A stretch of 64,000 nt of DNA from positions 3,168,001 to 3,232,000 of the forward strand of contig OZ223209.1 in the NCBI GenBank assembly GCA_965140415.1, in the 5' to 3' direction. The position numbers were made by a program, and so were the translations under genes. Shown piece after piece: positions 7,107-54,090 of the stretch. Numbering within the stretch: the stretch's first letter is position 1; each line of letters starts with the position of its first letter. This DNA is from Myxococcota bacterium (GTDB taxonomy: Bacteria > Myxococcota_A > SURF-8). Under the pieces are notes generated by a model. The model was given only the letters and a program-made list of their open reading frames with translations. It did no database searches and was not told the origin of the DNA.

Positions 7107-8411
7107 TCACTCGGCCAATATCGGCTGTAATCCCAAAACACCATAGTGTTTTAAATAGGTTTTTGAAACCCCAGGGCACATCTTTTTCAGTGAACACGGG
7201 CTGCAACAATCTGCAAAACTCATCTCCCGATTCATCGGAGTGTCAACCAGAATCATGTTCGATACCGATTCTTTTTCTTTTCCCTGCCAAACCGAGTTAG
7301 CCAGGTAAACATCTTTTCGCTGGTTCGTATGCGATCGCAATCCCTGCAAAATGCAGACAGGCAAATTCCCGACGTGCAGAGGATCGGCATTGTCCGACAA
7401 CCTGAATTCAAAAGGCAGTAAGGCATGAGCGACGCATTCGTAATCGGGAACGACGCGTTCAAAGTTTTCCTTGGCGCCGCCGATGATCCAGGGATAATCC
7501 AGCGCGATGCGAAATACCTCAAAGCGATCCAGCATGTCGATAATTTCCGGCAAGGTCGCCAGATTCTGCTTAGCCAGAATCGTAGTCGTGAACATGTGCC
7601 TGCCGGTAAGTTCTTGCTGGCTGCGATCCCCAAACAACGCCCGCATGTTAGCCAGAGCGGCACGTTTCTTTTCGAATAAATCCGCAGTTTGTGTAAGAGA
7701 GGCTTCCGTCTTTTTATCAGCAGCGTGGATGCTCAATCCGATTCCGGTCAATCCGCGATCCAGCAGATTTTGCAGATAGGCTTTATCTGAGATTATAACG
7801 CCATTTGTTTTTAAGAGAATGGACTTGAATTCCATTTCATGGGCGATTGTAACCAATTCCGGCAGATCCGGGTGCAGCGTCGGTTCCTGGCCGGTCAAGG
7901 TAAGCGCGTCATACCCTTCCCGTTTGGCCTTTTTCAGCGTTTGAGTCAGTTCGGCTAGCGTCAATTTCGGATACGATTCATCCCGGCAGCGGTCGGTGCA
8001 GAAAAGACAGGCGGACACGCAGGAAAACCCGACGATCAGATCGAGTCGTTTTCTGCCAACGATGGAGATGTATTCTTCATCCACGCGGTCGAACAAGGCG
8101 TCCAATTCCAAATCGGATAATGTCTGGGTGTTCTTTTCCACAATCATGGCGACTGCCTGTGCCAGTCGTTCGATTTCGGGGGTGGCGTTGCCTTCGATAT
8201 TCATCGCCAATCCCAACCGTCCCGCCTTTACGAAGGCTTTTTCCGAAAGTTTTGCCGAAAAGAGAACCAGACAGAAACTTTGTAGATTTTTGATGTCTCT
8301 AAAATCGAGTTCAACGCGAGAGGTTCCGCGCACCGCATCCAGAACGAACGTTCCCGCAAACGGCTTTTTGGGCCGGATAGGAGCAAGATAAGAAAGGAAG
8401 GGGTGCGGCAT
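7107..8411 (-). CDS. Radical SAM protein with C-terminal CxxC-x5-C motif (HxsC-like)
   Basis: CVSACLFC (CxxxCxxC), TGQEPTLH, TNG, SIH; C-terminal CSPCSLKKMCPGV..YL..YG...L.P. Confidence 0.8.
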   Translation of the reverse strand: MPHPFLSYLAPIRPKKPFAGTFVLDAVRGTSRVELDFRDIKNLQSFCLVLFSAKLSEKAFVKAGRLGLAMNIEGNATPEIERLAQAVAMIVEKNTQTLSDLELDALFDRVDEEYISIVGRKRLDLIVGFSCVSACLFCTDRCRDESYPKLTLAELTQTLKKAKREGYDALTLTGQEPTLHPDLPELVTIAHEMEFKSILLKTNGVIISDKAYLQNLLDRGLTGIGLSIHAADKKTEASLTQTADLFEKKRAALANMRALFGDRSQQELTGRHMFTTTILAKQNLATLPEIIDMLDRFEVFRIALDYPWIIGGAKENFERVVPDYECVAHALLPFEFRLSDNADPLHVGNLPVCILQGLRSHTNQRKDVYLANSVWQGKEKESVSNMILVDTPMNREMSFADCCSPCSLKKMCPGVSKTYLKHYGVLGLQPILAE

Positions 8412-8660
8412 GTAACATCCAGATTACAATCGTTAAATGATTCTAAATAATTAGGGGATTTTGCCTGCTTTGTCAATGAACGAATCCAGCTAAACGAGAG
8501 TTGGAGAAACAGGTTTCAAGTCCCAAAAACTGGGGAGCAAAGCGGAAAGGCGGAAATCCACAAGACCCACCATCAAGGAAGGGTTTCCCTTCCACCTTCC
8601 GTCACCTGCCACGCATCATCTGTGGCTTGTAATAATATTTAGCCACAGATTCTGTGGTTT

Positions 8661-8761
8661 TGTGCCATAGTCTTACGCGATCGAAGATCGTGGAAGGCTG
8701 TGTGTCTTCAATAAGTTACACACGGCCTCCCGGAATTTCCATTCCGTGAGACCATGGCACA
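8661..8761 (+). ncRNA. Candidate structured RNA (four-way junction), family unknown
   Basis: Four contiguous helices found by hand (see findings); three G-U pairs versus one A-C mismatch favour the + strand. Confidence 0.45.
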
Positions 8762-8859
8762 TCGTGATTACTCGATGGACAGAAATGAATAATAGATGGT
8801 CTAACACCTGGTCTGATACTTCAAGCTTTGAAAAACACATGGGAATGGGAATTGAACAG

Positions 8860-8910
8860 AAAAAAGAAGGCCGTTTCAAGAAAGACGTATTCCCGAAACG
8901 GCCTTTAAAA
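8860..8910 (-). terminator. Intrinsic terminator after the lipoprotein genes (possibly bidirectional)
   Basis: AAGGCCGTTTC...GAAACGGCCTT 11-bp stem; T-run on the minus strand. Confidence 0.7.
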
Positions 8911-8927
8911 TCACGCGAAGCTATTCA

Positions 8928-10043
8928 TCAGGGCATACAGGCGCACTGCCCGCCTGCATCCTGCGGAGTGCCGCCATTGGGACACTGGTTGTTTTCACAG
9001 GCGTAGACGCAAACCGAGAAACGACATAAGCCGTTGGTGCAATCGGCGACGGCATTATTCCAAGGTGGCGTGATGGTGTCCGAGCCGCAATCGGCGGCAG
9101 TCGAACAGGTTGCCTGCGCGTTTTCGCTGGTGACGATACACGACAAATCCTGCGCGCAAGGACCGGCGTCGGCATGAACGCCCTCGCTGCTGCACACCTC
9201 TCCGAATTCAGCTCCACCCGTATTCAATACGCAGTAGCAACTATCTCCGACCGCCATCGGATCGTGCTGATCGTCGCAAGCCCCCTGATCATCGCATCGT
9301 TCCATGCAGGAGGAATATCCGCAACTTCCTTCTACGCAGTCCGCGCCGGGCATACTTTGCTGGTTGGCACAGTCCTGATCGGTTGTACAGGTCAACTGCG
9401 CGTTGGGTTCCATGCCGATGCATTGCGTCTGCTCGCGACAGGTTACGCCATCGACATTAACCACGCCGAAGGGGCAAGGTTGATCCAGACTGGCATTGCC
9501 GCCATCCACTTTGCACAAGGCTTTCGGGTAACAGACGTATTGATCGCAGAAAAATCCCAATGGGCAGCCGCTGTCATCCTGGCAACCGGTTTGGGTGCAG
9601 ATCAGAAATTCGGACTGGGCGCTGTCTTCGAATTTGATATTCAAACAGCGTTCACCGTCCGAACAATCCGAATCGACATAGCAAGTCTGGCATTCCAGAC
9701 TGCGACAGGTCTCGGTGCTTTCGTCGCAGAACTGGTAGTTATCGTAGCTGCATTGACAGCCGGTGTTTACGTCGTCATCCCCATCCGCCGAGTCGCCGTC
9801 TGCCGTATCGCCGTCGGTGTTTTGATTGTTTGAATCGCCATCGACAAGCGGGGGATTGCTTGTATCCCCATCCGTGTCGCCATCCGTAGCAGGATCGACT
9901 TTCACGCACACCCCCAGCTGACAAGCCTCGTCGTCTGCACAATCGCGGTCGAGTTCGCACGCGGTTTCGCCATCGCTGTTACATCCCATCACCAGCACTG
10001 CTGCCCACAAGATCACCATAGCCACGATCACAAAGCGTTTCAT
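8928..10043 (-). CDS. Cys-rich lipoprotein with DGD linker and a duplicated C-terminal Cys domain
   Basis: MKRF...LVMGC lipobox, AGGAG RBS, CxxDxDC repeats. Confidence 0.85.
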   Translation of the reverse strand: MKRFVIVAMVILWAAVLVMGCNSDGETACELDRDCADDEACQLGVCVKVDPATDGDTDGDTSNPPLVDGDSNNQNTDGDTADGDSADGDDDVNTGCQCSYDNYQFCDESTETCRSLECQTCYVDSDCSDGERCLNIKFEDSAQSEFLICTQTGCQDDSGCPLGFFCDQYVCYPKALCKVDGGNASLDQPCPFGVVNVDGVTCREQTQCIGMEPNAQLTCTTDQDCANQQSMPGADCVEGSCGYSSCMERCDDQGACDDQHDPMAVGDSCYCVLNTGGAEFGEVCSSEGVHADAGPCAQDLSCIVTSENAQATCSTAADCGSDTITPPWNNAVADCTNGLCRFSVCVYACENNQCPNGGTPQDAGGQCACMP

Positions 10044-10124
10044 TTCAATTTTCTCCTGATTCTTCCTCACGATCATTCATTCGCTACAAGTACTTCAGTT
10101 ACGCCCAAACACGCATACCACTGT

Positions 10125-11507
10125 TTACGGACATTCGCAATCCTGCTGATTACAACTGAGTTTCAGTCGAAAGACATAATCCCCCGCACTGGAATTCGTG
10201 GCATCTACGACGAACACGAACCAGCCATCATACGGCGCGACGAAATCCGGTGTGTAGGTTCGATAATAGATGTTGTTTTCACACAACAGTGACGTCTCAC
10301 AAGCGGTTTCCAAACAGTTGCTTCCGCTCCAAACCGTGAAGGTAACGTGCAGATCGTCCGAGCCGCTGCATTCGTAATATGGATCGAGATGAATGTGGGC
10401 GGTTTCTCCCTGGCGCATGAATAAACGATAGGCATGATCCGGTCCGGCACCGGAACAGGTCTGGCCGGGAATCCCATCGAAATGATTGGACTCCCCGCAT
10501 AAATCGCCATAGGGGACGGAGTAACCGTATTCATTGAAAGCCGCGTCCCTGCGTCCGATGGTGCGTGCATGCGCGCAACCCGCCCGGCTTTCGCTGCCGC
10601 TGGTACAACCTTGCACGTCACAGAAAAGCGCTTCCTCTTCCGCTTCGATCTGGTCCGAATCTGCTTCTTCATCGCCGTCAGCGGGCATGTCCGCTTCTAT
10701 ATCAATCTCAATCTCATTTTCCGTTTCTACTTCGAGATCGCCATCTTCGATGCTTTCCGATTCCGCCAATTCAGACAGTTCCAGATCACCGTCACCAGGT
10801 ATTTCATCGTCTTGATCAACTTCGTATGCATCGCCATCCGGGGCGATTTCTATTTCCAGGTCTCCATCTACAGGTAGATCGCTTTCGGTGTCGCCATCGG
10901 TTGCGATGTCTTCATCGCCCGTGAAATCACCGTCCACAGGTAAATCTCCATCGATAGTGGAATCCGTTTCTTCATCGCCATCAATCGGCATGTCATTATC
11001 CGAGTCGCCATCCGAATCGCCATCCGAAGGCTTGTCTCCGTCTACAGTCAGATCGTCATCCCCGCCAAGATCGCCGTCCGTTGCGGCGTCGGCTTCTGCA
11101 TCTCCATCCGAGTTTGCATCGACACAGCTTCCGTTTTCATCGCAGCGCTTGCCGGAGCCGCAATCCTCATCGGACTGACAAAGCTGTGGGTTATCCTGAT
11201 CCGGCATACAATATCCGCCGGTACATACAAATCCATCCGGGCAGCTTTGATCCTCCGCACAGGGATCGGCGGGGACGCAGCTATATTCTTTGCAGTAAAA
11301 GCCGCCGTCGCAATCCACATTCGTTGTGCAGAAGGCTTCCGTTTGACAAATACCCTGAATGCACTGTTGGCCAACCGAGCAATCGGTATCGTCCGCACAG
11401 GCGATTTCATCACTGGAATTCGAATCCGAGCAGCCGATCAATAAGGTCAATGCAAGCAAATACACGAGATAACCGAAAACCCGAAATCCTGGCAATTTTA
11501 CATCCAT
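10125..11507 (-). CDS. Cys-rich lipoprotein with a long acidic DGD tract and a C-terminal beta-rich (PPC-like) domain
   Basis: Start ATG 11507 (MDVKLPG...LLIGC); four CxxDxxC repeats; ~160-aa D/E/G tract; GPDHAY...APYDGWFVFVVDA. Confidence 0.8.
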   Translation of the reverse strand: MDVKLPGFRVFGYLVYLLALTLLIGCSDSNSSDEIACADDTDCSVGQQCIQGICQTEAFCTTNVDCDGGFYCKEYSCVPADPCAEDQSCPDGFVCTGGYCMPDQDNPQLCQSDEDCGSGKRCDENGSCVDANSDGDAEADAATDGDLGGDDDLTVDGDKPSDGDSDGDSDNDMPIDGDEETDSTIDGDLPVDGDFTGDEDIATDGDTESDLPVDGDLEIEIAPDGDAYEVDQDDEIPGDGDLELSELAESESIEDGDLEVETENEIEIDIEADMPADGDEEADSDQIEAEEEALFCDVQGCTSGSESRAGCAHARTIGRRDAAFNEYGYSVPYGDLCGESNHFDGIPGQTCSGAGPDHAYRLFMRQGETAHIHLDPYYECSGSDDLHVTFTVWSGSNCLETACETSLLCENNIYYRTYTPDFVAPYDGWFVFVVDATNSSAGDYVFRLKLSCNQQDCECP

Positions 11508-11823
11508 CTCCCCAACCTCTCTGTATGACACGAATCTTTCAAAGGATTTCGGCATTCTACGACAAGCCGGAAAAAAAAGAAACGTTGTATGCGAAAAACT
11601 GACCAAAGTCATATATGGCATCCGGGCAATATGGCATGCTGGCCATGGTTGTACGCGATTCCGTTTTTGCAGTTGATCGGAAACGCAGCGATTCACGCAG
11701 TACCTATTCTCCCGCTCACGCTCTTCCAACAAAGACTCGAAACGCTTCTGCATTAAAACCAAGGGATAGTCGTTTTTACAGCCGGGTAGGATTCGAGTGA
11801 TTTCGATTTCAATGGGTACGGAC

Positions 11824-11853
11824 TTGACACATTCACCTAACCCATAATAGAAT
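11824..11853 (+). promoter_or_regulatory. Sigma70-type promoter
   Basis: TTGACA-N18-TAGAAT, about 40 nt upstream of ATG 11895. Confidence 0.6.
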
Positions 11854-11894
11854 CGCTCAAGTTTTTGCAATTCCTGCCACTAGGAGCCATAAAA

Positions 11895-53808: not shown

Positions 53809-53823
53809 GCTTGCAGCGTTCGC

Positions 53824-53907
53824 TCGGTTCCCTTGCGCCGGTATGATCCGGATCAGGTTCAATGGGTATGATCTCAGCCTGCGTAAAATGCAGGCACCCC
53901 AACCAGT
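53824..53907 (-). ncRNA. TPP riboswitch
   Basis: GGGGTGC...GCTGAGA...ACCC..TGAACCTGATC..GATCATACC.GCG.AAGGGAA upstream of thi4-thiE. Confidence 0.95.
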
Positions 53908-54090
53908 CACGATCCCGAATTGTCAAAAAGCGGGTGAAGAATAGCGCCGATATCTTTCAGTAGCAAGGAAAAATGAAAGCGACTGCCGATTTTAGATTCG
54001 TTTCCGATAAATTGCTTGAACTTGTCCGAAAAGAAAGGTCATGATATAGCATACGGAGATCAGCAAAGCATCCTATACCGGAGAATCGCC

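Follow-up and report, generated by a model that had tools for sequence, protein, structure and literature searches.

A predicted four-way junction in an uncultured Myxococcota genome is probably the core of a REPIN-like DNA repeat linked to a RAYT clade

Introduction

Does a 101-nt sequence that can fold into a nearly perfect four-way junction specify a structured RNA, or is it a DNA element? The question arises at positions 8661–8761 of a 64,000-nt stretch of a Myxococcota bacterium genome (contig OZ223209.1, positions 3,168,001 to 3,232,000; hereafter the window). The original prediction, made from the letters of this stretch, described four helices (P1–P4) in a gene-free gap, proposed a novel ncRNA or structured DNA, and listed a MITE as the alternative to a single-copy RNA.

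One class of bacterial repeats bears on the question from the outset. REPs and their RAYTs are defined by inverted REPs that flank a RAYT gene. RAYT stands for REP-associated tyrosine transposase, a Y1 HUH single-strand DNA endonuclease or transposase. REPINs, which consist of two inverted REPs, are thought to exploit a RAYT, according to the parts of two published accounts on which we draw (PMC3337134; PMC5581495). Here, we analyze the copy number, anatomy, base-pair conservation and genomic neighborhoods of the 101-nt sequence, and weigh the readings that it allows.

Results

A stable fold in a gene-free gap

All four predicted helices were recovered when the sequence at 8661–8761 was read again. 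P1 has one A/C mismatch between 8 and 6 pairs, P2 carries a GAA loop on 6 bp, P3 comprises 13 pairs with a single bulged A, and P4 carries a TTCC loop on 6 bp; the three G-U (T-G) deviations described for the + strand are also present. With RNA parameters, the minimum free energy (MFE) was −51.9 kcal/mol on the + strand (z = −8.04) and −52.5 kcal/mol on the − strand (z = −8.38), with 0 of 200 shuffled sequences as low in either case. The comparison with shuffles that the original prediction had proposed therefore finds the 101 nt far more stable than chance, at a z of about −8 on either strand. The junction itself fared differently under the two energy models. With DNA parameters, the four-way junction is the MFE structure (−28.8 on the + strand, −27.9 on the − strand), whereas with RNA parameters a single long imperfect hairpin beats it, the junction reaching −48.4 on the + strand.

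The surroundings also agree with the earlier description. The gene-free gap extends over 516 nt (8412–8927), between an ORF for a radical SAM protein at 7107–8411(−) and another ORF at 8928–10076(−). Within it, the element lies where it had been placed, downstream of a terminator-like hairpin (8905–8867, − strand) and upstream of a promoter-like site (8476–8447, − strand). A search of Rfam 15 at gathering thresholds gave no match to the element, the sole match in the window being a TPP riboswitch elsewhere (53812–53911, − strand; 65.1 bits, gathering score 54.3). At E values up to 10, the interval 8350–9000 gave five matches, all far under gathering (best E = 0.096). Neither search placed the element in a known Rfam family.

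The 101 nt are the core of a high-copy repeat

The genome that holds the window (G000) is a single contig of 5.98 Mb. A BLAST query of positions 8600–8820 produced 90 HSPs in it. Sixty-five cores span at least 80 of the 101 nt, 55 of them at full length, and several are 100% identical to the core in the window. One further copy was located near genome position 319,000. The proposed check of genome copy number thus returned a multi-copy dispersed repeat, and the single-copy RNA was not borne out.

The same 101 positions stand out beyond this genome. Exactly positions 1–101 found multi-copy matches, at 71–88% identity, in six of the order's 10 genomes, and this core alone is the part conserved across genera. 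Of the 41 relatives searched, the 31 remaining Myxococcota gave no match to it. A search of one genome per species (185,579 species) for the exact degenerate motif of the half-unit described below found 59 loci in only seven assemblies, six labelled as Myxococcota or Myxococcales MAGs and one merely as "bacterium". Collections of plasmids and phages contained no match to the 187-nt unit.

Public short-read DNA contigs from three runs of one study end at the edges of the repeat: one stops at 8582 and another begins at 8761. None of these contigs spans the repeat and none represents an empty site. Their summed depth over the repeat exceeds that of the flanks more than 200-fold, a figure that marks a repeat and gives no copy count.

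Two inverted palindromes form the core

The core consists of two inverted, imperfect palindromes of ~44 nt, set 12 nt apart with their tails inward and their heads outward (Table 1). Read head-first, each half-unit, a palindrome by itself, opens with a head of 5–6 nt; an 11-nt arm (CATRGTCTYAC) and its complementary partner (GGRAGGCYGTG) then enclose a variable hairpin and pair as a lower stem of 11 bp with two T·G pairs and one A/G mismatch. The head is GTGCC in the window copy; TGTGC, GGTGC or GGGTGC are also seen, and GGGTGC is found in relatives. A left arm of ~43 nt, the 101-nt core and a right arm of 42 nt together make a repeat unit of ~185 bp.

Table 1 Features of the repeat unit and its surroundings in the window
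Feature	Position	Strand	Evidence or remark
Left arm of the ~185-bp unit	8630–8660		Window copy lacks the family's outer ~12 nt; similarity begins at query position 31; arm alignment
REP half-unit 1	8661–8705	+ (head-first)	Helix 1: 91.5% of cells paired, 6 pairs changed on both sides
Half-unit 1, head	8661–8665	+	
Half-unit 1, lower stem	8666–8676 with 8692–8702	+	Two T·G pairs, one A/G mismatch
Half-unit 1, apical hairpin (P2)	8677–8691	+	
Spacer, 12 nt (P3 loop)	8706–8717		Mean pairwise identity 0.72, versus 0.91 for stems
REP half-unit 2	8718–8761	− (head-first)	
Half-unit 2, head	8757–8761	−	
Half-unit 2, lower stem	8746–8756 with 8721–8731	−	
Half-unit 2, apical hairpin (P4)	8732–8745	−	
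Right arm of the unit	8762–8803		Ends ...TCTA; terminal TA at 8802–8803
Repeat X	8507–8631		Unrelated dispersed repeat, not part of the element; 20 BLAST rows
Terminator-like hairpin and T-run	8867–8905	−	Belongs to the upstream gene 8928–10076(−); context
Promoter-like site	8476–8447	−	Same gap

Half-units occur mostly as pairs. Of 149 half-unit matches in G000, 110 belong to 55 heads-outward doublets, and most of the remaining 39 are remnants in which the P2 or P4 hairpin of the family is still present; doublets therefore exceed singlets. Lone half-units with a third type of hairpin were found three times in this genome, and several lone half-units exist in relatives. In a census of heads, two stem classes dominated with 54 and 49 heads, while chance would give ~57 scattered over many stems.

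In the window copy, an unrelated dispersed sequence (repeat X) adjoins the unit and replaces the outer end of its left arm, positions 8618–8629 being repeat X. Other copies account for 18 of its 20 BLAST rows, and they continue for at least 60 nt further beyond the conserved GGCTTGTACC; three of them had no match in Rfam. The point where repeat X meets the truncated left arm shows a perfect 10-bp hairpin, with arms at 8618–8627 and 8641–8650, which is probably an accident of that junction.

Covariation favors the hairpins of each half

We counted base pairs over 33 distinct doublets from five genomes in a MAFFT alignment. Under the junction model, 91.7% of cells were paired and eight pairs had changed on both sides. 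Seven of these eight lie in P4 (4/6 pairs) and P2 (3/6, with the four inner pairs counted over 10 of the 33 rows, since the alignment misaligns short P2 variants), against 1/14 in P1 and 0/13 in P3. The covariation proposed as a check on the fold was thus found for P2 and P4 and was wanting for P1 and P3. One pair of half-unit 2 (columns 67/96) was A-U in 22 doublets, G-C in eight and unpaired in three. Under a model of two hairpins, 11 of 33 pairs had changed on both sides, a number matched by none of 500 shuffles. The apical hairpins use dozens of different 4–6-bp stems in which pairing is kept, with loops that are usually GAA, GGA or four bases long, and the two apical hairpins of one doublet differ from each other. 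This pattern indicates that P2 and P4 are genuine hairpins under selection.

P1 and P3 have a simpler origin: they pair because the two halves are inverted copies. Two positions differ between the halves in the window, and both are Watson-Crick within their half (A-T versus G-C, and T-A versus C-G). When the same positions are paired across the halves, they become the A/C mismatch, a T·G pair and the bulged A. Inverted duplication of one self-complementary unit accounts for P1 and P3 at least as well as the junction does.

The halves are also strand-specific. The lower stem has two T·G pairs that hardly vary, one kept in 32 and the other in 31 of the 33 doublets. They turn into C/A mismatches on the opposite strand, so that the hairpin of a half is good only where its head is 5′, and each strand of the doublet has one good REP hairpin only.

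Palindromes of similar build flank genes of one RAYT clade

A search with the Pfam Y1_Tnp profile returned weak matches adjoining half-units. In a related genome, G004, two half-units of the same type as in the window lie immediately on either side of a 172-aa ORF, heads pointing outward. Against the NCBIfam model for REP-associated tyrosine transposases (NF047646; cut-off 80), this ORF reaches 89.9 bits and a member of the same clade in G006 reaches 95.3 bits. Clade homologues were detected in eight of 401 Myxococcota genomes, six among the 10 of the order and two among the 391 others. The HUH motif (H-V-H) and the Tyr motif (Y-I/V-H-x-N-P-V) are conserved among nine aligned homologues. By eye, all 10 clade loci have GGGTGSCA on both sides, followed by a hairpin that starts at its CA and whose stem sequence varies between loci; a regular expression for the head matched nine of nine upstream and eight of nine downstream flanks. 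With this query, the clade was not found in two genomes that bear half-units, G001 and G009 (the latter 90% complete). Classical REP tetranucleotides, GTAG (or CGTC), are absent from the window's class.

The only clade gene in the window's genome, at 4582387–4582953 (L143:1501–2067), is 71% identical to that of G006 and otherwise full length, with one in-frame TAG where its relatives have Tyr, which may be a sequencing error or a recent inactivation. Unlike the window's class (~103 heads), the REPs around it belong to a sister class with the stem CATGGGC and ~35 copies. Adjacency to a RAYT gene is in any case not proof of mobilisation.

Two other candidate partners were considered and rejected. 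A second RAYT clade, "group A" (168–178 aa), is directly flanked by GTAG-type REPs of its own in G001 and G000; in G001, one of its genes sits between two half-unit doublets, a proximity that its own GTAG-tagged REPs make incidental. An IS4-like element was proposed as an autonomous partner and set aside for having its own 53-nt inverted repeats. It lies at 1589840–1591240 of G000 (L117:5040–6442), encodes a 400-aa ORF with DUF4372 and DDE_Tnp_1 domains, and directly adjoins a lone half-unit at 1589804.

Other REP-related and Y1-type sequences are also present in this genome. An intact 168-aa RAYT at 4046707–4047213, which scores 181.7 bits on NF047646, has GTAG-tagged REPs at its flanks. More REP families of the GTAG type are dispersed across the genome, and several REP classes are combined in mosaic clusters such as those around 4883430–4883670 and 322380–322680. 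Matches to Y1 transposases of the IS200 type were found at 224848, 598394, 886009, 1390075 and 5746978; all five score 149 bits each, which suggests an active or recent IS200/IS605 element.

A TA-bounded shell surrounds the core

Both arms were recognisable in 29 of the 55 full-length cores. Among these, 26 copies begin with TA on the left; at the right end, the T is found in 24 copies and the A in 21. The base before the left TA is a pyrimidine in 20 copies, and the base after the right TA is a purine in 23. The terminal inverted repeat (TIR) is imperfect, matching at ~17 of 21 positions of the consensus by eye. Together with the dispersal of the 65 cores, these MITE-like ends gave substance to the alternative listed in the original prediction. 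They raise the rival explanation that the ~185-bp unit is a classical MITE, moved through its outer TIRs by a TA-duplicating DDE transposase of the IS630/Tc1-mariner-like kind, with the REP doublet as passive cargo that landed in the center of the palindrome.

The shell behaves in part as this explanation would have it. The same outer ~25 nt surround a different REP doublet, of the GTAG type, at four loci. At 4448380–4448800, one such composite is nested in a window-class core with TA on either side, where an intact core has a single TA. A TA duplication is the trace expected from a DDE transposase and is, to our knowledge, not known for Y1 enzymes. The nested sequence fits a TA-duplicating insertion, as a single event, and it counts for the MITE reading with that limit. 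Other genomes hold the same core in other TIR-bounded shells: a ~250-nt shell with 17-nt terminal repeats and TAG/CTAG ends is common to G004, G006 and G009, and G009 also has a ~176-nt shell. Published bacterial MITEs, as far as the parts of one review cited here describe them, are under 200 bp and have TIRs and 5′-TA-3′ termini (PMC2229807).

Conservation runs in the opposite direction. Mean pairwise identity was 0.907 for the core stems, 0.72 for the spacer and 0.56–0.76 for the arms, falling to 0.56–0.61 in the outer arms (62/71 copies); an element that depends on its TIRs is expected to show the reverse. A search of G000 with one Pfam family, DDE_3 (PF13358), returned no match. No longer element with the same termini was found in this genome, where arm-like matches elsewhere proved to be small composites or remnants. 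Core-less shells were represented in G000 only by deletion remnants and composites, and none appeared among the type-B arm matches listed for G004, G006 and G009. On this balance, a DDE-driven MITE with REP cargo is a live rival that we consider unlikely.

Copies lie at gene ends in both orientations

We compared the positions of the 65 cores with those of spacers in general, using a gene map built from crude ORF picks; this map mislabels the window's own spacer, which really lies between two − strand genes. Sixty cores are outside ORFs, and five lie inside short ORFs of ~90–110 aa. By spacer, 31 cores are convergent, 28 tandem and one divergent, against 657 convergent, 2250 tandem and 673 divergent spacers in the background. 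Twenty-eight cores are on the + strand and 37 on the − strand, and in tandem spacers 11 run with the direction of the genes and 17 against it, which shows no orientation bias. Copies avoid divergent (promoter-side) spacers without a strand preference, a distribution that is usual for REPs and suits a DNA repeat tolerated at gene ends and not a strand-specific RNA. Near the window copy, the ORF at 10125–11870(−) encodes a cysteine-rich protein with a DUF7107 domain, another of which lies at L117:4133–4969.

It is highly improbable that the junction instead functions as RNA, be it as a small RNA gene or as a 3′-UTR element acting in cis, such as one that stabilises or processes mRNA. In favor of this reading, the fold is very stable on both strands, P2 and P4 show compensatory changes, 59 of the 65 copies have at least one ORF upstream, being in convergent or tandem spacers, and would often be co-transcribed, and ERIC and REP repeats are said to influence mRNA stability in the part of a review cited here (PMC2229807). 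Against it stand the ~65 copies, which face either way with no preference set by the neighboring genes, the lack of an Rfam family, the pairs that distinguish the halves (Watson-Crick inside a half, wobbling or mismatched between halves), the conserved T·G pairs that become C/A on the other strand and leave one good REP hairpin per strand, and the lack of a promoter or terminator of its own. The novel ncRNA of the original prediction was therefore not sustained. Its "structured DNA" held up, as did the MITE alternative named among its checks.

Discussion

Our preferred reading, to which we would give roughly two chances in three, is that these 101 nt make up the conserved core of a palindromic DNA repeat that is non-coding, interspersed and present in high copy, namely a REPIN-like REP doublet linked to one RAYT clade. 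The element is in that sense a fairly ordinary selfish or junk-like repeat and not a new RNA gene. Clade genes are flanked, heads outward, by such palindromes, so the doublet has the topology of the two ends of a RAYT gene without the gene between them. In the window's genome, the doublet is carried in TA-bounded arms of ~42 nt, and for this reason the copied unit is ~185 bp long with MITE-like ends.

In single-stranded DNA, each half of the REP doublet would extrude as a hairpin, on whichever strand puts its head at the 5′ side. This hairpin would be bound by the RAYT and cut near the head, and copies would thereby be made or spread. A whole single strand of the doublet could also fold, either as the four-way junction or as one long hairpin. 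The repeat, its anatomy, the covarying hairpins and the neighboring RAYT genes were observed here, and we infer binding, cleavage and mobilisation by the RAYT.

The element resembles published repeat systems in several respects and departs from each; the comparisons draw on parts of the papers cited. Like the REPIN/RAYT systems (Bertels & Rainey 2011, PMC3337134; Bertels et al. 2017, PMC5581495), it consists of inverted imperfect palindromes with a short spacer, has tens of extragenic copies in which doublets exceed singlets, and uses the same palindromes that flank a RAYT-family gene of low copy number. Unlike the REPINs described there, it has a GTGCC or GGGTGC head in place of a GTAG tag. 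Its REP is long (~44 nt) and two-tiered, with a conserved lower stem and a free apical hairpin; the apical hairpins of one doublet differ, the doublet sits inside TA-bounded arms, and the nearest RAYT gene in the genome has a stop codon.

A second parallel is provided by the TIRYT/TIRtron elements, in which RAYT-like genes stand between long inverted repeats that lack GTAG, some of these repeats being described as self-complementary, moderately repeated and dimeric (Di Nocera et al. 2013, PMC3733652). For Anabaena variabilis and Halothiobacillus neapolitanus, the same account reports long palindromes that enclose REP dimers and of which no empty form was seen, and the arms in our genome behave like those palindromes. 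The TIR motif given there is GGGGWSAS, in contrast to GGGTGSCA here. Our element also differs in belonging to another phylum, in uncultured Myxococcota, and in combining one type of shell with two REP classes and one core with several shells.

ERIC, Correia and RUP MITEs (Delihas 2008, PMC2229807) share the outward form of the unit, which is under 200 bp, non-coding and intergenic, has imperfect TIRs with TA termini, and makes one long stem-loop as a whole. Compared through Rfam only, they showed no sequence similarity to it. In contrast to what that review describes in the parts cited, conservation in our repeat lies in the core and not in the termini, and this core has a link to a clade of tyrosine transposases.

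A further and rather doubtful possibility would join the two layers. The REP doublet and its TA-bounded shell may form one two-tier mobile element, in which the RAYT-type core would be the conserved cis-acting part and insertion would leave a TA on each side. If so, either the Y1 clade integrates REPIN-like units next to TA, which would provide the first sequence-level picture of REPIN insertion, or REP doublets have repeatedly been recruited as the obligate center of unrelated MITE shells.

The preferred reading of a REP doublet linked to a RAYT clade has several consequences. A false lead is removed, in that the sequence is not a new class of RNA; as a repeat, it fragments assemblies of short reads and gives rise to spurious short ORFs. 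The family adds a non-GTAG REP class, with a two-tier hairpin and its own RAYT clade, from an uncultured order of Myxococcota, as well as a clear case of REP doublets within TA-bounded palindromic shells. That the core is better conserved than the termini is odd, and it makes the question of what moves REPINs testable on defined substrates.
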